A stretch of 63,223 nucleotides of DNA, filler included, from Craspedostauros australis (lineage: Eukaryota), in assembly GCA_030167865.1 (NCBI GenBank). It is 10 parts of 10 records of this genome, joined end to end, with 100 filler letters (N's around TTAATTAATTAA, not from the genome) between each part and the next. Parts side by side here need not be neighbours in the genome. Positions count along the whole stretch, not along the records: positions 26,161 to 36,432 come from JALAGF010001384.1; 9 more parts are not named here. One strand, 5' to 3'. Of the stretch, positions 12,842 to 51,050 are shown in pieces. The notes under the pieces were generated by a model. It made no database searches, had not been told where the DNA came from, and saw only the letters and a program-made list of their open reading frames with translations. How positions within the stretch are numbered: the first letter of the stretch is position 1; every line of letters begins with the position of its first letter. The translations under genes were made by a program, and so were the position numbers.

Positions 12842-14803
12842 ATGAGCGCAGGCAACAAACGAGATCTCTCATCGCACGCGCAGCCGCAGGAGGCTGTGGT
12901 GACTCATTTTGATTGGAGCGCGAAGGTGGACTTTGCGTCTGGCACCATCTCCGCAGCGGCGACCTACCAAGTCCGCAAGGTCTCGCCAAGCGCCACGCAG
13001 GTGCATCTGGACACCTCCCATCTGCGCATTCAGTCGGTTCAGACCGTCAAGGGCGACAAGCTGAAGTACACGCTTCACGAACCGACCCCCAACAAGCCCC
13101 ATCTGGGTCAGAAGCTCTCCGTCGATCTGCCATTGGGCGATGGGGCGGCCAAGTCGGACACGGTCCAGATCACCGTGCTTTACTCCACAACGGAGAAGTG
13201 CAGCGCGTTGCAATGGCTCCCACCATCCCAAACGGCCGGGGGCAAGTACCCTTACCTCTTCAGCCAGTGCCAGGCTATCCACGCTCGTTCCCTCATCCCA
13301 TGTCAGGACTGCTGTGGCGTCAAGATGACCTACACGGCCACCGTCACCGTCCCCTCCTGGGCCACCTGCGTTATGTCCGCCGTTCTGCACAAGCAATCGA
13401 AGGATGCAGCGAGTGGGAACACCAACGTCTTTGAATGGAAGCAGGCCGTGCCCATCTCGTCTTACCTCTTCGCCATCGGCGTCGGTCAGATCGTCAAGAA
13501 GGACATCTCCAAGCGCTGCGCCATCTGGAGCGAACCCAGCATGGTCGAAGCTGCCGCGTACGACTTTGCGGAGACAGAGGAATTCCTGAAGATCGCCGAG
13601 GCCATCGCGGGCAAGGAGTACGTGTGGGGACGATACGACTTGCTCTGCTTGCCACCATCCTTTCCGTACGGAGGAATGGAGAATCCGTGCCTCACCTTCA
13701 TCACACCCACGTGTTTGTCGGGTGACCGATCTCTCGCGGATGTTGTCGCGCATGAGATCTCCCACTCGTGGACAGGCAACCTCGTCACCAACGCCACGTG
13801 GGACCACTTTTGGCTCAACGAAGGTTGGACGACATGGTTCGAGCGAAAGATCATGGCGCGCATCAAGAAGGATCCAAACTACCTCGATTTCGATGCCATC
13901 GGCGGACGGAAGGATCTGGATGACACCGTCAAGGAGATGCCGCCCCAGTTCACCAAGCTTGTCCTGGACATTGGCGACGGCGATCCAGACGAATCCTACT
14001 GCACGGTGGCATACGAGAAGGGCTTCACTCTGCTGCTGTCGCTGGAACGACGCGTGGGAACCCCGGCTTTCGAGAAGTTCTTCCAGGCCTACATCAACAA
14101 GTTCGCCTCCAAGACACTGACGTCCACAGACTTCAAGGATTTCTTCCTCCAACATTTCAAGGGCAACGCCAAGGTACAAGATGTAGATTGGGATGCCTGG
14201 CTGTACGGTTCTGGCATGGCACCGGAACTCCCACCCCTTGACACCACCTTGGCAGAGGCCTCCCAAAAGCTTGCTGATAGCTGGATGGCAGTTGACGCAG
14301 GCACCGTGGCTTCGTCGACGCTCGTGGATGGCATCAAGAGATGGTCGTCGCTGCAGACCACGTGCTTCTTGGATGCGCTGCAGATTGCAGCGACGTCGCC
14401 GTTGAAGATCTCCACCTTGACTGCCATGAACGGGGCCTACAAGTTCTCCGACAGCAAGAACTCAGAGATTCTGTTCCGATACTGCGAACTGGCCATCGCT
14501 GCGGAGGACAGCAGCATCATCCCAATGGCGCTGCACTTCATCACAACGCAGGGTCGCATGAAGTTCGTCCGCCCGCTCTACAAAGCATTGCACAAGTCCA
14601 AGATGGGCAAGGATATCGCGGTCTCCACCTTCTTGAAGAACAAGAGCTTCTACCACCCCATCTGCGCCAAGATGGTCTCCGGTGACCTCAAGGTTGAAAA
14701 CGAAAAGAAGTCTCAATCGTGGGAGATTCCGTACGGCATGATCGCAGCCGTCGGCGCTGTATCGGCCATTGCCGCCGTGCTGGTGTTGCGACGAAGAAAG
14801 TGA
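12842..14803 (+). CDS. LTA4H: Leukotriene A4 hydrolase / M1 leucyl aminopeptidase with C-terminal TM anchor
   Basis: SQCQAIHARS, YGGMENP, HEISH-x18-E (WLNEG), YEKG, QGRMKFVRPLY. Terminal hydrophobic helix followed by RRRK. Confidence 0.95.
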   Translation: MSAGNKRDLSSHAQPQEAVVTHFDWSAKVDFASGTISAAATYQVRKVSPSATQVHLDTSHLRIQSVQTVKGDKLKYTLHEPTPNKPHLGQKLSVDLPLGDGAAKSDTVQITVLYSTTEKCSALQWLPPSQTAGGKYPYLFSQCQAIHARSLIPCQDCCGVKMTYTATVTVPSWATCVMSAVLHKQSKDAASGNTNVFEWKQAVPISSYLFAIGVGQIVKKDISKRCAIWSEPSMVEAAAYDFAETEEFLKIAEAIAGKEYVWGRYDLLCLPPSFPYGGMENPCLTFITPTCLSGDRSLADVVAHEISHSWTGNLVTNATWDHFWLNEGWTTWFERKIMARIKKDPNYLDFDAIGGRKDLDDTVKEMPPQFTKLVLDIGDGDPDESYCTVAYEKGFTLLLSLERRVGTPAFEKFFQAYINKFASKTLTSTDFKDFFLQHFKGNAKVQDVDWDAWLYGSGMAPELPPLDTTLAEASQKLADSWMAVDAGTVASSTLVDGIKRWSSLQTTCFLDALQIAATSPLKISTLTAMNGAYKFSDSKNSEILFRYCELAIAAEDSSIIPMALHFITTQGRMKFVRPLYKALHKSKMGKDIAVSTFLKNKSFYHPICAKMVSGDLKVENEKKSQSWEIPYGMIAAVGAVSAIAAVLVLRRRK

Positions 14804-24221: not shown

Positions 24222-26060
24222 TCATACTTCCTCATCTCGCAATCCATCAGATATTGACTGTGATCTCTTCGTGTCTGGTGCTTGCATGTCGTTAACCATC
24301 TTCCATGGGGCGTGCTCCACCAGGGCGGCGCCCTTCGTTGCTGAGCCCTTCCTCATCAGCGCAAACGACATCTGGTGCATCAGACCATCGATGTAGGATG
24401 GTCCCAAGGACAGCGTGGAAAACACACCGAAATGACCGCAGACGATGGAGTCATCGATCACTGTCCGATCAGCAAATGTGAGCAGCGGAGCGTCATAGAT
24501 GCGGGATCCAAAGTACAACATCTTTCCCTGGATGGTCGCCCCTCGGAATCGCAACGCAGCGTTCATCATCGGTGTGCCCCAAACAACTGCCTCGAAGGAC
24601 CACGACTGAAAGAAATGGCTGTAGGACAAGTAGACCATATACAATGAAATCGACCATGGTCCTCCGCGTTCAACGCCTCCCAAGAGAGTGATGGTGACGA
24701 TTACTCGATAGAGAACGAGCCAGATGAGGGTCTGGATGATGGTGGATGCCGCAATGGCAACCGGAATCAGCGCCATTGTCGTGTCTGGCTTGAGTATGAT
24801 CGCCAACAGCTCATATGATGGGATGAGGCTGGCCGCCACTGCCGCAAGGATGATGATATGCAGCAGGGTGTTGTTGATCATGATCATGAAGAACTGGGAT
24901 GCGGAGAGAGGCACGTTGTTTGGATGATGCTCGGTGTTGATCATATCGCTGGTGACGTGGGCGCCAGGAGTCACCATGGCTCTGCGGATGGTCACACCAG
25001 GGCCGCATGCCAGCGTCATGCCGACGGTGCTGTCTTCGATGGTGATCGCCTTGTATTGGCCATCTTCTTCGACATCGAGGTCACAAAAGGAGATGAAGGA
25101 TCGCTTGACCGTGACGAGGTCCAGCTTGGATGGGGGGAACAGGATTGTCACCGCCCTCGATCTCATATCGATGTCCATGCCGTGTGCCATGAGGACGAGG
25201 TTCCAAAGTTGGGAGTACAATGTCAAGTCGAGCATCAGTGTTGTCCCGACGAAGAAGTGGAAGTCACAAGCCCAGTCAGCAAACTTGGAGAATGTTCCTG
25301 TCCGCGCTGGACCGGATCGCTTCTTGCCGATTAGCACCCACTTGAGGATGATGCTGGTGATCACGAAGCAGACGGACGTGAGGCCAAAGAAGACGATCCA
25401 GTAGACGATGGGGGAGTACCTCCAATCTGCAAGCCCATCTCCGACCAACTGATCAGCAGCCACGAAGCATGCGAAGGCGAAGTACAGCTCGATGGCGAGC
25501 CAAACAAGCTTCATCGTTCCCAGCACGATCGATGGGCTGGTGGATTTGTCGGATGCCGTGTCCCCACTCGCTGTTCCAGTTGCGGATGCATCGTCATCGC
25601 CCTTGAGAGTCGACGAAGGAGCATCGACAAATGCTGGGTTGCCTCTGATCGAGGTGTTTGGTGGTGCTTGAGCACCTTCCACGAGCACGGACATGCGCTG
25701 GACCTGGCAGCCAGAGCCGACGCTGGTTCCAGCAAGCAAGGCGCCATTGACCGTAGCGTTGGATCCAACCTGAGTCTTGCGAAACCTCACGCTGGGGCCT
25801 TCCTGCTCATCCTTCCACGGGCCNAACATGCGGCATCGGATGTGCGTGTTGACCGTGGCGCCAGCACCAACCTTGACCAGGTCAAACTCCCGGACGGTCC
25901 CGTTCACGCTGGCCGAGCGATGGATGTTGGCACCCATCAGGTAGTAGAACAGCGTCATCAAAGGCGTGTTGCCGATGATGCGGCCGACGAAGCGCTCCCA
26001 GATATCGACCAACCGATCGACGAACCACCACCTGATGAAATAGATGTTGGTCTGATTGGC
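24222..26060 (-). CDS. Epsilon-poly-L-lysine synthetase (Pls)-like NRPS, C-terminal membrane/acyltransferase-like region; 5' part lies in an assembly gap
   Basis: Frame open from the gap edge at 26060: IYFIRWWFVDRL...GNTPLMTLFYYLMGANI...DLVKVG + hexapeptide repeats...RGNPA; then TM pair ending ILKWVLIGK; second module (LWNLVLMAHGMDI...LDLVTV); TM pair; third module (WGTPMMNAALRFRGATIQG...LLTFADRTVI). Confidence 0.8.
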   Translation of the reverse strand, partial: ANQTNIYFIRWWFVDRLVDIWERFVGRIIGNTPLMTLFYYLMGANIHRSASVNGTVREFDLVKVGAGATVNTHIRCRMXGPWKDEQEGPSVRFRKTQVGSNATVNGALLAGTSVGSGCQVQRMSVLVEGAQAPPNTSIRGNPAFVDAPSSTLKGDDDASATGTASGDTASDKSTSPSIVLGTMKLVWLAIELYFAFACFVAADQLVGDGLADWRYSPIVYWIVFFGLTSVCFVITSIILKWVLIGKKRSGPARTGTFSKFADWACDFHFFVGTTLMLDLTLYSQLWNLVLMAHGMDIDMRSRAVTILFPPSKLDLVTVKRSFISFCDLDVEEDGQYKAITIEDSTVGMTLACGPGVTIRRAMVTPGAHVTSDMINTEHHPNNVPLSASQFFMIMINNTLLHIIILAAVAASLIPSYELLAIILKPDTTMALIPVAIAASTIIQTLIWLVLYRVIVTITLLGGVERGGPWSISLYMVYLSYSHFFQSWSFEAVVWGTPMMNAALRFRGATIQGKMLYFGSRIYDAPLLTFADRTVIDDSIVCGHFGVFSTLSLGPSYIDGLMHQMSFALMRKGSATKGAALVEHAPWKMVNDMQAPDTKRSQSISDGLRDEEV

Positions 26061-26294
26061 NNNNNNNNNNNNNNNNNNNNNNNNNNNNNNNNNNNNNNNN
26101 NNNNTTAATTAATTAANNNNNNNNNNNNNNNNNNNNNNNNNNNNNNNNNNNNNNNNNNNNTGAGACTGGTCAACGTGGAGTGTTGTTGGCTGTCCTGGCA
26201 TGGCAAATTTTGTTGTTGCCGCGCGCAGTCATCATCGTGTCTTGTGGAGGAGGAGTCACACGATGTCTCTTCCTCTGTTGTGACTCGTTTTTCA

Positions 26295-26475
26295 TGACGT
26301 GGAATCCGTTCCATGTGACGTAGAAGACGGATCAGCGAGAGTAAACACGAAATAGCTCTAAATATCCAATCGCCGTTTCTCCCAAAAGCAAGCAAACCAG
26401 TGGCAACAAGGGGCCAAAACTCCACAACTAGTGATATCGCGACACCGTTTTACATTGAGTGCAGCTAGTACGTCA
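26295..26475. promoter_or_regulatory. Three CRE/CCRE-like motifs upstream of the beta-CA
   Basis: TGACGT 26295-26300, TGACGT 26316-26321, ACGTCA 26470-26475. These are the same hexamers as the CO2/cAMP-responsive elements of the P. tricornutum ptca1 promoter. Confidence 0.4.
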
Positions 26476-26752
26476 GCGTGCTGGGAACAACAAGATCCGT
26501 TGCGTGAGAGACATCTCTGTGCGTCCTCTGACATTGATGTTCGGTTGTTTTGTTGTGCGAAACGCTTCGGCTCCCACGAAGCCGGCACACCGCATCAACA
26601 CCTTGTCTCTTCAGGATCTCCTCTTGACACCCTCCGTTGCCATCAACATCATCAGCATCAAGAACCGCATCAACATCTCCACCAGCGATGTTGTGATCAA
26701 CTTCGCAAGCCACCAACCGTCCAACAAAGGAAGAAAAAAGAACAAGAGAATC

Positions 26753-27800
26753 ATGATGAAGATCTCCGTCGCCCTCGCTTTCCTCGCTGCCCTGCAGTCA
26801 GCCGCCGCCTTCGTCGGCGTCGCGCCAACCACCAAGGCATCCACGAGCGCCCTGTCGGCTGCCAACCTGCCACCACCCTCCGCTGACAAATCCAAGCTCC
26901 AGGAAATCTTCTACCAGAACCAGGCCTGGAAGGCGTCCAAGATCTCCGAGGATCCCGCCTTCTTCCAAAGGCTCGGATCCACCCACTCTCCGGAATTCAT
27001 GTGGATCGGAAGCGCCGATGCTCGCGTCCCACCGAACGTCATCATCGGCGAGGATGCCGGAAACGTCTTCGTGCACCGCAATATCGCCAACATGGTCGTC
27101 AATACCGACACCAACCTCATGAGCGCCTTGCAGTACGGAGTCAACTACCTCAAGGTCAAGCACATCATCGTCTGCGGCAACTACGAGTGCGAAGGTGTCC
27201 GCGCCGCTGAGGCTGCCAAAGACTTTGTCGCTCCACTCGAGCTGTGGCTGCGAAACGTTCGTGATGTGTGAGTTCTATTTCTGCGTTGCGTTGCGATGTC
27301 TGTTGCGGTTGCCGTCGCGGTTGCTGTTGTATTACTGTATTCGCTGCATTCATGGGTACGACTGGCGCCATCAGCCTTCTCACCGTCATACAAACGCTCG
27401 TCCCAGTTGCTACCACGCCACGCTCACAACATCAACGTGTGACGAACAACGAATACTGTACTCGTCAAACAATCCACCCACACATACTAACACCCATACA
27501 TACCATCACAACAGCTACGCCAAGCACCGCGAGGAGCTCGACGCCATCGAGGACGCCGATGCCCGCCACCGCCGATTAGTCGACCTCAACGTCATCCAGC
27601 AGTGCGTCAACGTCCTCAAGACCGGCGCCGTCCAGAGACGACGCGCTGCGACTTGGGCCGAGGGTGAGCCATACACCGCACCGCTCGTCCACGCCGTCGT
27701 CTTCGATCCAAAGACCGGCGATCTCAGGCGTCTTGACATTGACTTTGAAGAGTACAGAGACGAGCTCAGCAACGTGTACGGCCTTTACTTGGTCGATTAG
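26753..27800 (+). CDS. Plastid beta-carbonic anhydrase-like protein (PtCA1/2-like) with substituted Zn ligands; 2 exons
   Basis: Exon 1 26753-27267, intron 27268-27514 (GTGAGT...ACAG), exon 2 27515-27800; 266 aa. Presequence SAAA-FVG. Motifs WIGSADARVP, FVHRNIAN, IIVCGNYECEG, VRDV|YAKHREEL, LVDLNVIQQ. Confidence 0.9.
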
Positions 27801-28778
27801 AGTAGACCTTTGCATTGCGAGAACGAGCGATGTGATAGGCGAAACCAGGCGGTGTTAAAGTCGTCGATGCCTCAGCCACTTGATTGACTGACTGGCTCCA
27901 GTGCAGCACACACAAATGCAGGTGGCATCTCCCAACATGTGGAACACCGTCCTCTGTTGTTCACATCATGGAGAGAAGGTTTGACCGTGCAATCTTGACA
28001 GCTGACTACGAGAACTGAATGTTGGAAGACGATGACAATGACTTCCCATTGAGGGCGCCTGCAACATCAACGCAGTTCGTGATGATCGTTTTGCGCCAGG
28101 AAAGGACTCAGAGTGCAACATGACGGGTGATCACTAATTGCGAGAGTAGCGGGGGTAGATGGGAGGACTCTGGATTATGTACTCTCCACAGCGCCTCGCA
28201 TCCTCCACCATGGCCATATCTCATCTGTCTCTCTTCTTCACGTCGATTGGATGATTGTGAGCGCGTTTCCAGTCACCCAAATGAACCCATCTTTCTCTCT
28301 AGTGGGATGCAGTATGTTAGACTACGTCTGGCATACGTGCGTGAAATGACAAAGAAAATCTGTTTGTCGTTTGTGACATCGACACGTCATTGTTCCATTC
28401 GTTTGGCATGTAGTCGAATGGCTCGAGGACAATTCATGACTCATATCCACATCGACTCCCGCTTACTTTTGGCGCGCAAGCTCGATGACATTCCCGCATC
28501 GCTCATTTCTTCGCCTTCGCAGAAAATCGCCATTCGGTTGATCGGGAAAAACAACGCAACACGAAAAACCGACGAACGTGCAAACGCACACGCGTCGTGC
28601 TCATGTTTGTTGTCCATGAGAACATTGGCGTTCCTCACAAGGAACGTGAACAATCATCTATCGGGAAATCAATCCACGCAGCAGCATTGATGCATGCCAT
28701 TGGGCGAAGACTGATTCATCCATACAGCATAACACAGATCAGACAACAACCACCCTGCTTGTGACGAGCACTCACACC

Positions 28779-31700
28779 ATGGCGACGGTTGATGACATGC
28801 AGATGGTGGATCATCATCAACAACAACAGCATCATCATGCACAGCACCAGAAGCAACTGTCGTTGCAAACAGACCACGTCAACGAAGCAGCAGTAGCATC
28901 AGGGGCAGCAGGGGCACCAGCAATCACAACAACACCTGAAGATGCATCTTACATCAACCACGAATTCACACTATCGTTGCAGCGAATGGCACGCAGCAGC
29001 ACCACCGATGCAGATGCACCACCGCAACATCTGAAGCTGGACCGATCCCAATTGCAAATGATCTCATTCGCGTCCGAAGACGATGCATCTAAGAAATGGC
29101 ATTGCGGTGTGGAGTTCCACTCGCAGGAGCAATTCCTGGTCTTTGTGGAGCATCTGTCCGCGGCGTTGAACATGTCGGCATCGTACTTACTGGATCAGTT
29201 CGTGATGGAGTTCATGGCGCATCAGCAGAAGCAGATGATTGAGGTTGAAGAGTCCGCCGCTGATGACGACGATCGTGAGATGCAGGATGCTGCGCAATCA
29301 CAACAAGACTGCGAAGCACAGCACAGCTCTCTGCGCTTTGTGTACTTTATCTTTGACGCAGGCTTGCCGGATGGACGGAGATTCCTCTTCAAGCCTGCCG
29401 CGATTGACAAAGGAGCATCGCATGTGTCGCAGGCATCGCCGAATTATGAAGTCGTGACCTCGGGTGACAATCGCTTCATCCGGAGTTTCATGAAGAACCT
29501 CAATCAAGTGCCATTTCATCAACGCAGGACGGTCATTGGGCCAATCCTCAAACTGTTCCAAGCATCTGGCGTCATGGGAATGCAGAAGAACAGCAGCAGC
29601 AGCAGCAGTAGGAGAGAACATGGCCCAATCAACACGACTGGTCCAGCGCAGCCCCCGCCCAAGATTGCCAATACAATCACCGGACCTGCACAACGAGACA
29701 CACTGCCAACAATCTGTGCCCCACCGAAAGACACGGCCACCCCAATGCCAACGCCAACACCAACGCAGCTGGGCACAGACACTCAAGGTGCCACATCCAC
29801 CGCGTCGCTTCAACGTAAGCGATCCTTGCAGCAGACGAGTGATACGAGCACGACTGTGAGCCACAGCGAGACCATCACGCCACCGCAAAAGCAACGCCAG
29901 GACTCTTCTGGCGCGGATGCCGATGATGGGCGATCGCACGTCACGCAATCATCGTCGATGGTTGCATCGAAGCGTAGGAAGATCATATCCGTGATAGCAC
30001 AGTCAAACGCGAATCAGAAACAACCAGAGAAGACCAACGCTGATACCAAGCCAGGCAGCACCAAGGGACGCAAGCTATTTTCCAAATCAGCATCAAAGAA
30101 GAAACTTTCGAAGCATTCAGCCGGAAGAGCCACGGGCAAATCGAAGAACCCTAGGCCCAGCCTGACAACGATTGATGAACAATCAACAGCATCAGCAGAA
30201 GGAACAGCAGCAACGTCATCCTCTTCGCAAAGTGATCGCAAGCTAGACGTCGCGTTGACGAAAGGAAACGACAGCTGCAGCAAGACTGGTGATAGCATTG
30301 GCAGCAACACCACATCGTCCAAGACAGAGGCATCCGAACAAAGCACAAGTGCCCAAACTTGCCACAAGTCACCACCAGTAGCCAGCAAACCACAAGTAAA
30401 GGCGAAGGCAAAGACAAAGGCAGCCACGAAGGTCGACACACCAGCAAGCTTATCGACGGACGCAGACAGCAAGACGAGCGCGGACAGCAAATCAAATCGA
30501 TTTCTTCTGGCAAGCAATCCTCGTGATGAAGTCGTGCGCAAATTCTCCGCACGCACGCTATTCCATGAGCCATCCACCACCGCTGCGGTAGACGCGAAGT
30601 CAAAGGCTGAACCGCACCGCTCGTCCACAATTCTGCCGCAATCGCCGCAAGCGGGTAACTTCTTGGATTTCATGGAGGGCTTCTCCAGTGTCTGCACGTC
30701 GTCTTCGTCGTTCGATTCCAACTCCGCTTCGGATGACTCCAATACTATGGAAGATACCACACAACAAGTCGATGCTGTTGTGCAGCAACCGGCAACCACG
30801 ACCAGCACTCTGGAAAGCACTCCTTCGGAACACCCGGATGCGCCATCTACGACAGGGACAAAGACAAGCACCCCAGAGGCAGAATCAGACGCAGAATCTG
30901 AAGCAGCATCAGAAGGAACAGCCAGCGTCGATGGAACTTCTGCTCCTGATCTTGATCTTGCTCCGTCTCATCGGGACATGATGATGCTGTCGCCGATCTT
31001 CAAAAGAGGTCGCAAACATCAACCCAAGATCGACCTCTTTGTTGATCAGCCGAACATGAGCCTGCGGGAAAAGCTCACGCGATGCTTGGAGGCACTGACT
31101 ATTTCGTACAGAGCGGAGCATTTGGACATTGGCAACGATAGTTCCAAAGTGTCGCAGCGACTCAACACCATCTGCCGGGCCCTCGAAAACATGTTTGTCC
31201 GAGCGAGCGTGGAAAGCTTGGGTGCACTTCATGTCTGCGGCGTGCCAGGTTCGGGCAAGACCATGGGAATTCGTTGGTGCTGTCACCAGGCCAAGGAATG
31301 GGCTCGTCAAGAAATCCAAAAGGCCAAAAACGAATGGCTGGGTGAGAGTAGCAGTGACGAAGACGAGTCGATCATGAACCCGTGGGACGCCGTGCCGTCG
31401 ATTTGCCACTTCAGCGCCGCCTCCGTGCAAGGCATCGCATACAGAGAAGCATGGGATCAGCTCAGCGATGCCATGTCGCATGCCATGGGCGAGCGCTTCC
31501 AAAGGAAAGCGATTGAGATCACGGGGAAGGGATCCAAATGCTGCATCGTCCTCGTGCTAGATGAGATCGATCTGTTGGTGGGCACTCCGTTGGAACCAAT
31601 GTTGAAGAGGCTGCTGGAATGGTCGACCGATCCGTTGATTGCGTTTGGGTTGATTGGCATCTCCAACTCCATCGAAAACGCCACTGCCGTCCGTTTGCAT

Positions 31701-32612
31701 TCTCTTGGCAAGGTGAGCCGACTCTTCTCGTGCATACGGGTATCATGCATCGCACCCGTGCCAATATCTGTACTCTACAATGCAATGCCTTGATTGGCTC
31801 ACTTCCAACTCGCACTTCCACAAACACAAACACTCCTGACAATTGCATTATTCCTTCTCCATTTCATCTCTTTCCATCATTCACCCTCAAAACTGTCCCT
31901 TCTCGTCTGCCCTTGTTGAACTCGAACAACGCAGTTTCAAATGAAATTGGCGTTCGAGACGTACGACCGTCAAGATCTCATTCAGCTGGTGCAACGCCGC
32001 ATCGGCGTTACCATCATGGACGAAAAGGCGTTGCAATTGCTGGCATCCACCGTGTCCACCACCACCGCCGATGCCAGACAAATGCTGGAATTCGTGCGAC
32101 GTTCCATCGACATCTGCCGCTCCAGTTTGGACGCTGCGACCCTGGACAGCACCGCTCCTGTCACCATGCCGATCATCAACATCAAGCACGCCCTGTTGGC
32201 CCGCAAGGCCTTGGCGCAGACATCGCACAAGGACCAAATCCAAAAGCTCCCCGATTCGCTCAAGAGCATGCTGTGCGTCATCACGGTTCTGCATCATGAG
32301 ATGAAGTCTCGCGAGTTGCCGATCCGCGACGTTCTGAGAGCCTGCAACGTGGCCATGGATGCGACGCGTGCGAGTATGGCATCGGACGAGGAATTGCGTG
32401 CCGGGATCCATCAGCTGGTGGATGCGGGATTGCTGCAGAAGCGCAAGCTGTCATGGCGATTGGTGACGCAGGAGGCCGGCGGCGAGGTGAACGACTTCGC
32501 TCTCGATGTTCTGGAGGATGTGGGACGCGTTACCGAACAGGTCCTCCTGAAGTCTGGGCTGTACAATGGCATCGTCGATCGAGTTTGCGCACATTTGGGG
32601 TTGAGCGGTTGA
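28779..32612 (+). CDS. CDC6: Cdc6/Orc1-family AAA+ replication initiator with long low-complexity N-terminus; 2 exons
   Basis: Exon 1 28779-31712, intron 31713-31934, exon 2 31935-32612. Walker A CGVPGSGKT, Walker B VLVLDEID, sensor IGISN, F..Y...L, DARQML, C-terminal winged-helix-like region. Confidence 0.8.
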
Positions 32613-32969
32613 ATGGACAAATCACAAAGGAGTCGTACCATATGTCGAATTGAATAGGAATCACATGTTCGAATCAAAACTGCCGGATGCGGTCACTATT
32701 ATTGTCATGCAACGCGTTGCTTGTGTTTCGCCAATGCATCAAACACGTCGATTGCCACGTGCCGTTGTGATTGCTGGAATCGATCAATGTGAGAAGAATA
32801 GTAGAGAATCATTTGTTGGAACATGAAGAGTACTCGTCTCCTTTGTCTCATTCCATGCCATCATCCCATGCCATGTTATTCCATTCCATGATATGGCCCC
32901 GCGGCACTTCTGTTGCGTTGCACAAGATTCAAGATTTCTCGCTCCCACACGCGCATCCCAGCCAAACAT

Positions 32970-34148
32970 TTAGTTGGACACGAACTCTTGGACCATGTTG
33001 GCGAAATACTGATGCCACCTGTGATCCTGAGTGAGCTCTGGATGGAAGGCGGTGCAAAGGATATTCTGCTTGCGAACGGCGCTGATGACTTCTCTCGAGT
33101 TGGTGCCATCCGCGGCACCCGGCAACGAAATGCAGTTCTGCTCCTTCTCGTCTTCCTTCTTTTCCTCTTTCGAATCCTCGTGCGACTTGACGACGACGCG
33201 GTACGTGATTTCCTGTGACGACTTGCGTTCCAAAGCATCGACAACCCCCATCATGATGACATTCTCGCCGTTGCGAATCTTGCGTTCCAAATCCTCCAGG
33301 ACGACGGCCGCCTGTCTGCACGGTGTCGCGAAGACCTTGCCGAGCACTTCGACGCCTTTTCCAGCTGACAGGATCGCAGGCGCGCGGATGAAGACGCCGG
33401 GGTAGGTCTCCTCGGGATCTCCGATGGACGGCGGAGGCGGCGTGGGCATCTCGAAGGACGAGACCTGCGACCCGAAGTAGTTGCGGCAGACCAAGATGTC
33501 CACGCCACCGATCAAGGTCTGACCGTTCTCAATGACGGCGCTGGCTCCCACGCACTTGTCGGACAGCAGAATCATGCCAGCGCAGGTTCCCCAGGTTGGC
33601 TTCGTGGCTGTGAATTCCTTGAGCGCGTCCCACACGTTCTTGCCATCCGGCGTTGCTGCTGACGTCCCGATGAGGCCCATGGCCGTGGATTCGCCACCTG
33701 GCAAGACGATGCCGTCGATGCCCTCCAAATCGGTCACAGTTCGGACCTGTTGATTGCGTGATTACGCGTGCCATGAGTTGAGAACAGAGGGATTGATCGT
33801 GCGCAGCAAGAGCAAGGAAAGATGCAAAGGCGGGGTGAGCAAATTGGCGGCGGCAGCAGCAGCTTCATCAACTGACTGATGCACTCTCATTGATTACATC
33901 ATATTATTGTAGAATATGGTATTACATAATATTTCACGACGAGAGCAGCAAGTCCTGTACAGATATGCAGTTGACAGATGGAAGAAGATGGAGCATCGGG
34001 CACGAACCTGCTTGGTCTTGCAGCCGACGGCCTCCAGACTCTGCTGATGCTCCTCGAAGGCACCCTGGAGGGACAAAACGCCGATCAGGACATCCTTCTT
34101 CGTGCCGTTTGTTGCTGCTGCTTCTGTGGCTGTTGCTGTTGACGCCAT
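32970..34148 (-). CDS. PDX2: Pyridoxal 5'-phosphate synthase glutaminase subunit; 2 exons
   Basis: Exon 1 34148-34008 (IGVLSLQGAFEEH), intron 34007-33747, exon 2 33746-32970 (PGGEST, WGTCAGMI, RNYFGSQ, FIRAP, FHPEL). Confidence 0.95.
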
Positions 34149-34894
34149 GGTGATGTTGCAACTCTGCTGATGGCGATGATGCCGATGATGGCGATGATGC
34201 CGATGTTGCTGATTCTGACTCGGTGCTCGCGACTTTGTAGAGATTTGTGGTTGATGCCAAGGAGAAAGATGATTCGCCCAAGACGAGAAAGACGAGGAGG
34301 GAAAGTTGGGCTGGTGGCGAGGAACACCATGACGACGATGGTGGTGGTCGCGGTGGCGGTCGTGATGGCGAGGCGGAGATCGGAACGATGTTGGGTTCTC
34401 GAATTGTGAGTGTTTGGAGAAGTTCGCACGGGTTGACGCACGGACATACATGCACGTTTCAGAAGTGGTCGATTCGATCCATCGGCTTCGTCCTGAGCGT
34501 TGTATCGTCTGTACTTCGTACGATACTTCTATTGAGGTTTAACTAAGTACATTTCCCGAAGTTCCAGCCGCGTATCTTTCGCCACAACCAAAGATCTGCT
34601 GCGTTGTGGACGAACCAGTGGTGAAAGAAAACGCACGCACCTGGGAGCAACGGTAAAAAATGAAAATTACCATAGGTCAGAAAGTAAGCTGAAATGAAAC
34701 ACGTACGCTACGGTGGCTTGGACTGGATAGCATGATCGGGGCAACCAGTGTTGGAGCGCAGAGAGCGAAGCAGCTCACAAACCCGAGAAGCACCACTCCT
34801 GTGTTGTTGGCAACTGCTGGTTTTGCTGATTAAGTGTGCATTTGTTCGTGTTGTGGTTGATTGACTTGTGTGGGACTATTGATGTGTGGAGTAT

Positions 34895-36042
34895 TTAAGG
34901 TGCCATTGGGGTTGTTGCCTTTGGGCGTCTGAGTGAGCGTTTGGTGTTTCTCTTCGGAGTCGCAGAGGTGGCAGAGTTCTGTTGTTTGGGGCACAACACA
35001 GTTGCAGCGTTCATGACAAAAGACACTGGATCAGTATCGTCTCCTTCGTTCTTCACGTTGTAACCAAAGTTTGTGTTGATCTCAGTGCACTCGAGCGGAT
35101 CTTCGTCATGCGCAACATCTTTGTATTGCTCGAAGCGATCAACGAAGTTCGGTACCACCTTGGANNNNNNNNNNNNNNNNNNNNNNNNNNNNNNNNNNNN
35201 NNNNNNNNNNNNNNNNNNNNNNNNNNNNNNNNNNNNNNNNNNNNNNNNNNNNNNNNNNNNNNNNNNNNNNNNNNNNNNNNNNNNNNNNNNNNNNNNNNNN
35301 TTGCTGTCCTGTGTGTTCTCATCTGTCTGTGGCAAGTAAGTTGCTGCATCGAAAAATCGCACATCGACCTTGAGGGAGAGCTCCAAGAATTGCTGTGCAC
35401 TCTCCTCCACAATTTGGAATGCCACATTCTCCCAGTGCATGAGGTACGGGCAGTGGTAGTGGATTGAAAAGCCATGACGCTGATCAGCTTGATTTGCAGT
35501 TTTGGTTGGTTTGTCCACACTGATGGGCATAAGATGCAGGCCCCCCAAGACGAGGGCCTTGAATTCCTGGCCCAATGGGTTGACGGTCATCTTCTTCATA
35601 TTTTTTGTCAATTCGCCGACTTCGCCAAAATCGATCTTCCTTGGTCCCAATTCGTGTTCGTTGGTGTTCGCTGGTTGGCTGGTGGTGGTGGTGGTTGTGT
35701 TGCGACGCTTCTCGTCGAAACGCGCGCGCTTGTTGGATGGACCGGCTTGTGGTGGCGCTGTCACCAAAGGAGTGTCAACGAGCGTCTCAGAAAAACGAAC
35801 AACAGGAGAATGAACGGATCTGGCTGCTGCGATCTATGTGCTGGCTTGAGGATCTGGTTCAAAGGATGCCTCAGAGATGGGACTTCCAAGAGTTGTGAGA
35901 TGCCCTGGAGTGAGGTCTGCGTTGTTGTTAGTGTTATTGTTGCTGTTGTTGTTGTTGTTGTTGGCAGTGGTGCTGGTGGTGCCACTATCGAGATCGATGC
36001 TCTCCAAGCTGATATCACTTTCGTGATTGTTGTCAACGAAGC

Positions 36043-36078
<36 letters not shown>

Positions 36079-36432
36079 TCTCTCCAAATGCGTCGCCTGG
36101 TTGAATGGCCAAGCCACTGCGCTCTGTTGCTGTGATGTCCCTGTTCCTGTCTGGTGTAGCAGGGAGGCCAGCTCGGCGTTTGAAGTCAGTTGGCAGGCCT
36201 GAACGAGAATGGAAGCAGTAGTAGCAGCAACAGCATGTGAGTTTGATCAGGCATGCTTGTGACACAGCAATCCAACTCGTGTACTTACGCTGATTCTTCC
36301 CTTCCCTGTGGAGCTTGAGACGATTGATGCAGCTTCTGAAGTTGCCATGCAGGTTGTTGCGGTTGTAGTTCTTGCCTGGTGGTGCCTGGATCCAGTCAGG
36401 ATGGTTGGTGATGAACTGTTTGAAGTTGGGGG
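34895..36432 (-). pseudogene. Hypothetical intron-containing gene with one in-frame TAG; 5' end in gap
   Basis: Exon ...NLHGNFRSCINRLK.. splices in frame (intron 36288-36199, GTAAGT...CAG) to the acidic/Asn-rich ORF 36198-35837. After TAG at 35836-35834 the same frame continues into ORF 35767-34895. Confidence 0.5.
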
Positions 36433-36532
36433 NNNNNNNNNNNNNNNNNNNNNNNNNNNNNNNNNNNNNNNNNNNNTTAATTAATTAANNNNNNNNNNNN
36501 NNNNNNNNNNNNNNNNNNNNNNNNNNNNNNNN

Positions 36533-47888: not shown

Positions 47889-49789
47889 GGTCCCAGTTCT
47901 TCATTCAATTCTATTCCACTCTGCTGTTTCTCGTTGTTGAGCTTGGTCCAACTCACCGACTTCTGCCAAACCTCTCTTTCGCGATACCTGTCGATCGATG
48001 GGCTCAGATCTGCGTTGATGCGTTCTTGTGGGTGGTCATCGCAGTCGCATTCTTTGTTGGTCTGTTGGGAGTGCCGCGAACACCATCACGAATTGTACGA
48101 CCAACACTTGAGCTTTTCCCCTTCGACTTTTTCTCACTCGTGACCAAATCTGTCTTGCGTTGTGTCTCTGACGGTTTCGAAACGTTATGACAATCCACAA
48201 TCTGCCATGCAGGTAGGACGCACTAAGTTGTGAGGTTGGGTGAAGCGATTGTGTCCACATGAGCTGACTGCGTACCCACGTGCATCAAGAAGAGTGCGAG
48301 CTATAATACGATCTATGGAACCCGAGCACTTCCAATTCAACTCAAGACTGCTGTGCTGCCATCGTTCTGCACAAGAGCTGGCGATGGATGGCATCGCGAG
48401 GAAGCACAGCGAAAACGGTGCGGTCCTTGGCGAAGCCATTTGCGATACCACAGCTCATAGATCGTAGATCGTGTAATAGATCGTCGATCGTACGCAGTCC
48501 CATAGACTCTAAACTAAAAAGGAGAAAGAGAATTCTGTATCAACGGCATCAACGATTGAACTGCAAGTGTAGTACTCGGAGAGTGTCATGTACTCCACAC
48601 GTGTTCCTCTGCTACGGAATGATTTGCGTCAAAGGACTTGTTGCAACACGCAACTACCGCACATCATGCCACAGCAGAGCGTCAGAGTACGACAACTGGC
48701 TGTCTGCACTCGTCCATGTGTTCATGGAGATGCTGATGCGAACATCCAACGACAAGAATCATCCAAGAACCCAAAGTCATGACGCGTGTGGAGTAAAGTA
48801 CTGTTATATATATATATATTCATATTACACCGTTATGACCAGCACTTTGGGTTTTTCCACATCGCCGAAAGACTTTGTTCTGTGGATCGCCAAGGAGAGA
48901 AGAATCCGTTCTGTGGGCATCGTCAGAAACTGGACACTGTCAGATGACTGTTCGATCCTCGCTATGCCACCCATGTCTGCGATAATGCAGCACAAGTATT
49001 GGTGCATGTACGAGCTAGGCACATCAACTATTTTACTTTTGAACCAACAGTGTTCGTACGAGTACGAGTACGTTTTCATTCTCGCCACTGTGCTTGCCAT
49101 CGGAGGTTGGTTTCCTTGTTGAGGATCGCCACCAGGTTCGCATCGATGGATCCAAGACATGAGGTTGGAGTCTTTCGGGCGCTGCAAATGTCCAAACAAA
49201 TGCCAGGCAACCACAGCGCAACTCGCAGACCACTCTGTTTTGGAATCGCCTTGACACCTTGATGAACTTGCATGTACTCGTAGCGCATGGGTACGAGTAG
49301 TCGACGAGGATCACACCCGCAGGCATCAATCTGTTTCGAAATGATATTGTCTTGATTGCATGTGATGAGGAAAACATGAGACGAAAGCGAAATCAGTTCT
49401 CTGCATAGTCCCGAAAATGAGGGCGTGTGATGTGTTGGAGGTACTACTATGGTGAAAGTACTCTGCCATTAGCTCGTGACCATATCACGCAGCGAAAGTC
49501 ACGATGTCACACCACTCGTCACATCCCGCGCACTCGTACCACACCATGCACACGACAAGCTCACGGTATTGACTGGAATCAATTCCGTCCCTCCAACACC
49601 GACAGTCGCTGTCTCATAAAATCAATCGATGAACAGATTGAAAAGCAAACCATCACCAGCCAGCAACCACAACGACAACAACGACAACANNNNNNNNNNN
49701 NNNNNNNNNNNNNNNNNNNNNNNNNNNNNNNNNTTAATTAATTAANNNNNNNNNNNNNNNNNNNNNNNNNNNNNNNNNNNNNNNNNNNN

Positions 49790-51050
49790 GATGAGAATAT
49801 CCTGCATGGATTTGTTCTCTCCGCTGTTGTCTCCTCGGAAGATGATTTGTTGATCACCAGTCTGTGACTTGATTGTCTGGACGAATTGTTTGATGTATCC
49901 TGGTTGATCACTCTTGTTCTTGAGAAAGAAACTCCAGCAGTGATCCGTGCAGTCGTCCACNATCAGGGTCCAGTAGCGTTTATCTCCGAAGCTTATGTGT
50001 TTAGTGTAACTAATGTCAATGAAGAGACGTTCACCNCTGTGAGTTGCTCTTGGGATTGTTGCCTTCAAGATGTTCTTCACTCTTGCGTTCGCGACCGCGC
50101 AGTCGCGACATACCGGCATTTCACCGATGATCTTCCATCCGTATTGAGCGGCTGTCCGCTTCATGGTCTTGAGTGGCGCGTGGCCGAGCATTCGATGCAA
50201 GTTCACTGCGCTGATCTCCTTGGATGGATTCTTGATGATGGCTGTGCAAGCCTTGTCGTCGACTGTTGGCATGATGGGATGCATCTGCACTCCCGTGATG
50301 AATCCGTTGGATGTGGGGAAGACTCGATCGAACACGATCTTCGTTCTGGATCCGTTGATGGTGTCCATCAGAATGCCGTTGTTACCAAGCTGGTATCCAT
50401 TGTACAGAGCCTTGTTCGTTGAGAAAAGGTTCACCACCATTTTCGGTGTGTACTTCACATCATCGAGCCGGATGATGTGGCCAGTGTTGTCTCGTTGCTT
50501 GACCTTCAAGCAAATGGATCCCATTTTGGGAGAGTCCAGCTTTGTACTATCTCCCACTTGGACGAAGGACTTGATGTGCCGCACGTTGAAGAGAGCGGCG
50601 TCCGAATTGACGATATGACACGAAGCTCCGCTGTTGGCGAGCCAGGTGTCTTTGTTGACCTTGTCCTTGTATCTGCTACTCAGCTCGTGGAGCTGCTCCA
50701 CGGCTGCTGCAGCTATCTCGTCGTCAAAGCTGCCGTCGTCTTCATCTTCGTGGACTCTGTCTTTGTTGTACGGATTGTGATGATCTCCATCATCCATGCC
50801 GTCATCGCTTGGTAGTTCTGCGTAGTCCGATGGAACTGTGCTGTTCTGATGGATTCTGGCCCCTGTGTCGTATGGCGCGACGTGTGGTCGCTCGCGCAAG
50901 AGCACACGCATGCATCCTCCAAGGACGTAGTGTAGATCCAATTCTGAGAGTTGATCCTCTTCTGCTTCCTCCAATAGTCGGTTGAGGATGGCTGCGTTGG
51001 CGAGTATCTCTTCAATCGACTTGAAGTTGTCGGACAGGATGGTGCTCACC
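49790..51050 (-). mobile_element. Ty1/copia pol fragment (protease, GAG-pre-integrase, integrase core)
   Basis: WLANSGASCH (protease DSG changed to NSG), LHRMLGH...CRDC zinc motif, RLFIDIS, VDDCT, RGDNSGEN. Gaps on both sides. Confidence 0.9.

Follow-up and report, generated by a model that had tools for sequence, protein, structure and literature searches.

We analyzed a stretch of 63,223 nucleotides (nt) of Craspedostauros australis DNA (GenBank assembly GCA_030167865.1), here called the window, which consists of 10 parts of 10 records joined end to end with 100 filler letters between each part and the next. The part taken from record JALAGF010001384.1 (positions 26,161 to 36,432) carries a two-exon gene on the plus strand, whose 266-residue product is, by profile match and alignment, clearly a homologue of the beta-carbonic anhydrases (beta-CAs; Pfam family Pro_CA, PF00484). 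Exon 1 matches positions 2-93 of the Pro_CA profile with 95.2 bits (cut-off 25.7, E = 6e−27), and exon 2 continues the match over positions 96-155 with 18.7 bits, a score that alone falls below the cut-off. The best solved relative is the beta-CA of Porphyridium purpureum (1ddz, E = 6e−77 over two repeats), followed by 7cxw/7cxy (E = 1.5e−42) and then by the enzymes of E. coli, Salmonella, Haemophilus, Pseudomonas, and fungi. Over residues 48-172, and again in exon 2, the protein is collinear with the type II beta-CAs (1ddz; 7cxw/7cxy; E. coli 1i6o; Haemophilus influenzae 2a8c). Unlike these enzymes, it begins with a predicted eukaryotic signal and transit presequence. At its N-terminus, a hydrophobic stretch that ends in AAA is followed by a Phe and by a stretch rich in Ser, Thr, Ala, and Pro, and a close relative (P0123) has the same layout. 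Judged by eye, and by the ASAFAP rule for plastid import in diatoms, we take this to be a diatom bipartite plastid presequence, which would direct the protein to the plastid.

The reading frame opens with the ATG at 26753, and the codon that the intron splits (GT|C) encodes Val. A public sequencing run (X1), which is presumed to be RNA, contains 42% of the sampled words from positions 26600-27900. One contig assembled from this run is 852 nt long at a depth of 43.8, joins position 27267 directly to 27515, and aligns with the gene over 440 nt up to position 27900. A second X1 contig (220 nt, depth 8) covers positions 27270-27489 inside the intron and is the unspliced form. Both contigs are at least 99% alike to the gene, with zero differing letters over the parts that they cover. 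Because the longer contig lacks exactly the intron, as a processed transcript would, it confirms the intron and shows that the 3′ part of the gene is expressed. The same contig ends 21 nt downstream of the codon for Glu147, and no contig that is at least 90% alike was found over the rest of exon 1; its stop at 27214 could be due to 3′ bias, to a branch of the assembly graph at a variant, or to filtering. The G+C content at third codon positions is 0.78, compared with 0.73-0.77 in neighbouring genes. A tblastn search within the window found neither a paralogue nor an alternative exon of the gene, and a search of positions 25900-28900 against Rfam gave zero matches. The position of introns varies among close relatives: the gene analyzed here and P0123 have an intron after the residues RDV and none near the CxDxR motif, whereas P0005, P0031, and P0131 are uninterrupted across RDV|YAK but broken just before GC[AS]DARV. 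These differences point to gain or loss of introns inside the clade.

The departure of this protein from its relatives lies at the metal site. In beta-CAs the zinc is bound by Cys, His, and Cys, as described in a study of the Coccomyxa enzyme (PMC3230598). In the alignment with 1ddz and 7cxw/7cxy, Ser87 falls under the Cys of wigCaDsR, Asn143 under the His of cgHygCgg, and Glu147 under the Gly next to the second Cys. The protein agrees with these enzymes at the conserved residues Asp89, Arg91, Cys146, and Gly148. Hence, where the type II enzymes have Cys/His/Cys and CGG, this protein has Ser/Asn/Cys and CEG. The Gly replaced by Glu147 corresponds to Gly-107 of the Coccomyxa beta-CA, whose main-chain NH is described as a donor to zinc-bound anions and which is called a "door keeper"; together with Tyr-88′ and Ala-108, it forms the gate of a narrow channel (PMC3230598). 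In the related locus L001, the three codons are TGC, CAC, and GGA, so that the codons AGC, AAC, and GAA of our gene are each one base step away. What surrounds the site is largely in place. In common with the type II enzymes, the protein has the second Cys and the Asp-Arg dyad. It also has W84, G86, V92, and R109, which would correspond to four of the five residues listed for the non-catalytic bicarbonate pocket (PMC3230598) under a constant offset of 45 implied by the match of residues 48-172 to positions 3-126 of 2a8c. The coordinates of all features are collected in Table 1.

Table 1. Features of the beta-CA gene and of its upstream region, in window coordinates
Feature	Position	Strand	Description or basis
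Exon 1	26753..27267	+	171 codons and 2 bases; presequence and N-terminal two thirds of the beta-CA domain
Intron	27268..27514	+	247 nt, GT..AG, phase 2, GTGAGT donor; skipped exactly by X1 contig
Exon 2	27515..27800	+	C-terminal third of the beta-CA domain, and stop at 27798-27800
Start of 3′ untranslated region	27801..27900	+	Transcript contig extends about 412 nt past 27900
Predicted signal peptide (M1-A19); AAA followed by Phe at +1	26753..26809	+	By eye from sequence
Ser87 (AGC) in place of first zinc-ligand Cys; CxDxR reads SADAR	27011..27013	+	Alignment
Asp89-Ala-Arg91, Asp-Arg dyad kept	27017..27025	+	D and R in 120/120 homologues
Asn143 (AAC) in place of zinc-ligand His; HxxC reads NYEC	27179..27181	+	Alignment
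Cys146 (TGC), third zinc ligand, kept	27188..27190	+	Alignment
Glu147 (GAA) in place of the "door-keeper" Gly after the second ligand Cys	27191..27193	+	Alignment
C-terminal helix segment FEEYRDELSNVYGLY	27744..27788	+	Conserved in diatom clade and in bacterial and fungal relatives
TGACGT hexamer, candidate CO2/cyclic AMP (cAMP)-responsive element	26295..26300	+	Motif match
TGACGT hexamer, candidate element	26316..26321	+	Motif match
TGACGT hexamer, candidate element	26470..26475	−	Motif match

An initial annotation, which was made from the sequence alone, had described the gene as a plastid beta-CA with an intact reading frame, an intron, and a presequence, in which SADAR, NYEC, and CEG stand where the canonical motifs are expected. 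These claims stand: the family assignment by the Pro_CA match and the alignment to solved beta-CAs, the gene structure by the open frames, the GT..AG boundaries, and the contig junction 27267/27515, and the three substitutions, to the base and the coordinate, by the sequence and the alignment. The N-terminus resembles the diatom bipartite plastid type (AAA|F), again as judged by eye and by the ASAFAP rule.

We evaluated how unusual the three residues are among homologues in two surveys. The first used the 120 best matches from a search of 5.8 billion proteins, aligned with MAFFT; these are mostly similar bacterial proteins and therefore are not independent samples. Where our protein has Ser, Asn, and Glu (columns 87, 143, and 147), every one of the 120 carries the canonical Cys, His, and Gly. 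Among 31 closer and mostly eukaryotic relatives, Cys is found in all 19 that cover column 87, and His and Gly are found in all 31. For the second survey, 1.84 billion cluster representatives were scanned with HMMER, and the 150 best representatives of 50% clusters were taken. In this more diverse sample, the first Cys is retained in 145 sequences, the His in 148, the second Cys in 149, and the Gly in 134. Residues other than Gly at column 147 are Ser (7 sequences), Ala (5 sequences), and Arg, Tyr, Pro, and Thr (1 sequence each); Glu is found in none of the 150. The Ser and Ala variants at this column occur beside canonical ligands.

The nearest relatives of the protein come from metagenomes and transcriptomes. 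P0003 and P0123 are 83% identical to it over 125 residues, P0135, P0136, P0005, P0131, and P0139 are 74-78% identical, P0031 is 70% identical, and the open reading frame (ORF) of L001 is 58% identical. Wherever the site is covered, the close relatives all read C[ASV]DAR and GHYECGG. A scan of metagenome DNA returned nine loci, of which only L001 falls within the eukaryotic clade; the source contigs of P0003/P0123, P0005, and P0031 were not among them.

To assess whether the protein has changed faster than its relatives, we compared it with its canonical sister P0123. In Tajima relative-rate tests with 10 outgroups, there are 3-13 changes specific to our sequence versus 2-10 specific to the sister (chi-square 0 to 3.8, none clearly significant), and with distant outgroups it is the sister that appears faster. 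In a maximum-likelihood (ML) tree (LG+G4), the terminal branch of our protein is 0.131, compared with 0.111 for the sister, and its root-to-tip distance of 0.943 is among the shortest of the clade (range 0.92-1.25). Fifty columns are near-invariant, with at least 98% identity across the 120 homologues. The protein keeps 46 of these, and the four departures are L83M, which is common to the canonical sister, and the three metal-site positions. The other changes specific to the protein in the catalytic core are few and conservative (V111I, G131N, N155A, N156K, and K73R). In a pairwise Nei-Gojobori (NG86) comparison with L001, the nonsynonymous divergence (dN) is 0.30 and the synonymous divergence (dS) is 2.8, for a ratio of 0.10; since dS is saturated and the ratio is not branch specific, we did not use it as evidence. 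The initial annotation had gone further and suggested a selected, non-catalytic role (a pyrenoid scaffold, a bicarbonate sensor, or a hetero-oligomeric regulator, for instance) or else another metal chemistry. This view is supported in part: the absence of rate acceleration and the 46 of 50 retained columns argue indirectly for retained constraint, and a location in the pyrenoid and a role as scaffold or sensor are putative.

We propose that this nuclear gene of a raphid pennate diatom encodes a catalytically dead, plastid-targeted beta-CA whose remaining structure is under constraint and which serves as an oligomer partner or as a bicarbonate-binding protein, a reading to which we give a probability of about one half. 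Three single-base changes would have rebuilt the metal site. The Cys-to-Ser and His-to-Asn replacements, near-isosteric but poor zinc binders, would leave the catalytic zinc with one of its three protein ligands. The Gly-to-Glu replacement would place a carboxylate at a residue that, through its backbone NH and its missing side chain, shapes the narrow substrate gate. Given the loss of the ligands and the Glu at the gate, canonical zinc binding and access to the site would both be lost, and the enzyme would be catalytically dead. Otherwise the fold is kept as closely as in the canonical relatives, with the oligomer-forming core, the dyad, the second Cys, probably four of the five pocket residues, and the C-terminal helix. 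Beta-CAs of this type are obligate oligomers. Therefore, the simplest role that we infer for the protein is that of a non-catalytic subunit or of a bicarbonate-binding regulator in the plastid; its job may be to co-assemble with an active plastid beta-CA, or to bind bicarbonate in a regulatory capacity.

Several points weigh against this proposal. The loss of zinc and of activity is a prediction from the sequence. The spliced X1 contig starts at 27214, and the codons at 27011, 27179, and 27191 lie outside its cover, so that the variant bases at the three metal-site codons rest on the assembly sequence. The fifth pocket residue, Tyr-181 of the H. influenzae enzyme (Hi-CA), presumably corresponds to Phe235 in our protein, and the whole clade is alike in this respect; the correspondence follows a mapping by motif, as Hi-CA gave no alignment to exon 2. 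No orthologue with Ser and Asn from another organism was found among the 120, 18, and 150 matches listed, and therefore long-term conservation of the dead state is conjectural. The Tajima tests involve about 90-160 sites and have little power, and P0123 spans exon 1 only. Selection along the branch leading to our gene is presumed, as the closest relatives are available as proteins only and dS to L001 is saturated. The short terminal branch is equally expected from a very recent loss of function. Finally, the paralogue search covered the window, and an active beta-CA partner elsewhere in the genome is hypothetical.

The strongest competitor to a constrained pseudoenzyme is a gene that was inactivated recently and stands at the onset of pseudogenization. 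Catalysis may have become dispensable, for example, because of CAs of other classes or a change of habitat, with the ORF not yet decayed. This explanation is a serious possibility, although in our judgment a distinctly less probable one. It accounts for the finding of the Ser/Asn/Glu state in this sequence alone among the matches listed, it fits the short terminal branch, and it is in line with each of the metal-site changes being a single-base step. On the other hand, the metal site has been hit three times, while the protein keeps 46 of 50 near-invariant columns and the gene shows no damage to its splice sites, presequence, or codon bias. The contig of the spliced transcript reaches a depth of 43.8. 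Neutral decay that reached three specific codons should have struck other conserved positions too. Moreover, Ser for Cys and Asn for His are near-isosteric exchanges, which is what continued selection on packing would favor. Purifying selection on the rest of the protein and a very recent loss would both fit the data.

The substitutions could also be foreign to the wild type, as errors of the assembly or its consensus or as mutations fixed in a long-kept culture strain. In favor of such an origin, the window is draft sequence and contains 28 N runs, the ligand codons are outside the cover of X1, and all three changes are to A on the plus strand. However, it is very unlikely that three independent errors would fall exactly on metal-site codons within 183 bases and on no other conserved column. 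Where X1 contigs cover the gene, they agree with it without one difference, and some 590 bases separate the ATG from the end of the nearest N run at 26160. We therefore consider this origin improbable.

Slightly less probable still is that the protein remains a CA, or a related hydrolase, with other chemistry, in which Ser87, Asp89, Asn143, Glu147, and Cys146 bind Mn, Mg, or Ca or the site works without metal. Two soft ligands are gone and a carboxylate has been gained beside the site, while Asp89, Arg91, Cys146, and the rest of the active-site shell are kept. Iota-class CAs that use a metal other than zinc, or none, have been described and would serve as a precedent. Against this, we know of no beta-CA that is active with a site remodelled in such a way, and the site is common to no relative among the matches listed, which gives no hint that a new chemistry has become established. 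The Glu at the gate more likely blocks the channel, given how narrow the channel is in the Coccomyxa study (PMC3230598). The boldest form of this idea, a re-tooled site in which oxygen donors (Ser, Asn, and the new Glu beside the retained Asp and Cys) have taken over from the soft Cys and His, and which holds a hard metal or none and still turns over or senses CO2 or bicarbonate, seems to us very doubtful; if it were true, the gene would encode a zinc-sparing beta-class CA in a diatom, and the TGACGT elements upstream would keep it a member of a CO2-responsive regulon.

To place the proposed pseudoenzyme in context, we examined the sequences among the 150 best representatives in which the first Cys is absent, of which there are five (P0273, P0275, P0324, P0311, and P0339). 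The Thr variants P0273 and P0275 were rejected, because in both a prokaryotic gene caller had run through an intron (WIG, followed by intron text and GCADAR). P0324 is a protein of 606 amino acids (aa) with a signal peptide followed by Phe, the motifs WIGSSDLS and CGQYGCGG (Cys to Ser, His to Gln), and a low-complexity tail of about 300 aa. P0311 and its full-length transcriptome form P0416 (515 aa) read WIGSSDAP, FVASN, and CGHYGCRG and have a C-terminal extension of 250 aa; P0416, too, has Phe directly after a signal peptide. In the tandem CA P0339, the second domain shows Ser, Ser, Asp, and Pro in the four columns surveyed above, with Ser for the His and Asp for the second Cys, and has thus lost all three ligands.

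In the ML tree, P0324 and P0416 fall together (ultrafast bootstrap [UFboot] 74) in a subclade other than that of our protein, and domain 2 of P0339 groups with tandem enzymes. Given these separate positions, the loss of ligands in our protein is independent. The terminal branches of the other ligand-less forms are long (0.52, 0.39, and 0.49), as expected of drifting pseudoenzymes. P0324, P0416, and domain 2 of P0339 are algal-type beta-CA homologues that share with our protein the Cys-to-Ser replacement at the first ligand. Yet P0324 and P0416 have also lost the Arg of the dyad, which our protein keeps as Arg91, and they carry C-terminal extensions of 250-300 aa. We found no description of P0324, P0311/P0416, or P0339, nor of any ligand-less or pseudo beta-CA from diatoms or algae, in the literature searched, and the accessible part of a preprint on the diatom pyrenoid proteome names only theta-CA and LCIP63.

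Dead carbonic anhydrases are already known as a kind, and ligand-less beta-CA homologues recur in algal data. The carboxysomal enzyme CsoSCA is reported, in a study by Sawaya et al., to have a zinc-less C-terminal beta-CA domain that acts as a structural partner of the active domain. This domain resembles our protein in being a beta-CA fold minus zinc ligands. However, the dead unit of CsoSCA is a duplicated domain fused to an active one in a bacterial microcompartment, whereas the protein described here is a free-standing, plastid-targeted polypeptide that is far less diverged from its active relatives. In other CA classes, the alpha-class CA-related proteins (CARPs) VIII, X, and XI and the gamma-CA-like subunits of plant complex I have lost metal ligands and serve in binding or in a structural capacity; their folds are unrelated, and they belong to other organisms and compartments.

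The C-terminal helix bears on where such a protein might act. In two publications, the C-terminal helix of PtCA1 and PtCA2 is described as driving clumping and pyrenoid location (PMC8395977, PMC11142338). Our protein may resemble these pyrenoidal proteins of Phaeodactylum tricornutum in being a diatom plastid beta-CA with a C-terminal helix, but they are active zinc enzymes, whereas our protein lacks two zinc ligands. The initial annotation had linked an amphipathic C-terminal helix of our protein to the pyrenoid. The helix is present. Its amphipathicity is moderate, as the helical hydrophobic moment of the FEEYRDELSNVYGLY segment is at most 0.46 over 11 residues. Furthermore, the helix is also found in the bacterial relatives P0004 and P0145 and in the solved fungal and bacterial proteins 7cxw and 4o1k; it is therefore a feature of the subfamily and not a module specific to the pyrenoid.

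A second likeness to PtCA1 and PtCA2 lies upstream of the gene, where three TGACGT hexamers are found within 592 nt (283-458 nt before the ATG), compared with 0.30 expected from the window-wide rate (Poisson, P of about 0.003, a post hoc value for a chosen motif). In the published account, TGACGT/C motifs on both strands are the CO2/cAMP-responsive elements of the PtCA1 and PtCA2 promoters and are bound by PtbZIP11 (PMC11142338), and TGACGT likewise occurs on both strands upstream of our gene. The upstream region is common to a divergent ORF at 24222-26012 on the minus strand, and the motifs may serve either the beta-CA gene or that ORF. We treat the hexamers as a lead, not as a finding.

Beta-CAs are central to the CO2-concentrating mechanism of diatoms, many of whose ocean waters hold little zinc. 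If the gene encodes a pseudoenzyme, it would be a rare young one, only about 17% diverged from active relatives, and would offer a clean system to study what a beta-CA scaffold does without catalysis, be it as an oligomer partner, as a bicarbonate binder, or as a component of the pyrenoid. In addition, the independent Cys-to-Ser forms P0324 and P0416 suggest that ligand-less beta-CAs are a recurring and undescribed feature of these algae. If, instead, the gene has merely undergone a fresh loss of function, it would be of local interest only.

The window contains several other features. A single-exon ORF at 12842-14803 encodes an M1 peptidase of the leukotriene-A4-hydrolase type, with a best match overall of 68%; its best named relatives, Nitzschia inconspicua (65%), Pseudo-nitzschia multistriata (64%), Cylindrotheca closterium (64%), and Seminavis robusta (63%), are raphid pennate diatoms. 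These matches place the window in a pennate diatom for which the database has no closely related annotated species. The divergent ORF at 24222-26012 on the minus strand, which adjoins the CA gene, encodes 578-596 aa, has no Pfam match at E = 1e−4, and apparently contains several hydrophobic segments and recurrent short turns rich in Gly and Asn. The ORF at 49742-50911 on the minus strand has a Pol polyprotein beta-barrel domain (PF22936) and is flanked by pairs of N runs; the domain indicates a retrotransposon remnant. The N runs of the window are paired, with exactly 44 N in each run and 12 called bases between the two. There are ten such pairs, for example, 26061-26104 with 26117-26160 and 36433-36476 with 36489-36532, and so odd and regular an arrangement looks less like ordinary gaps than like a convention used in scaffolding or masking.

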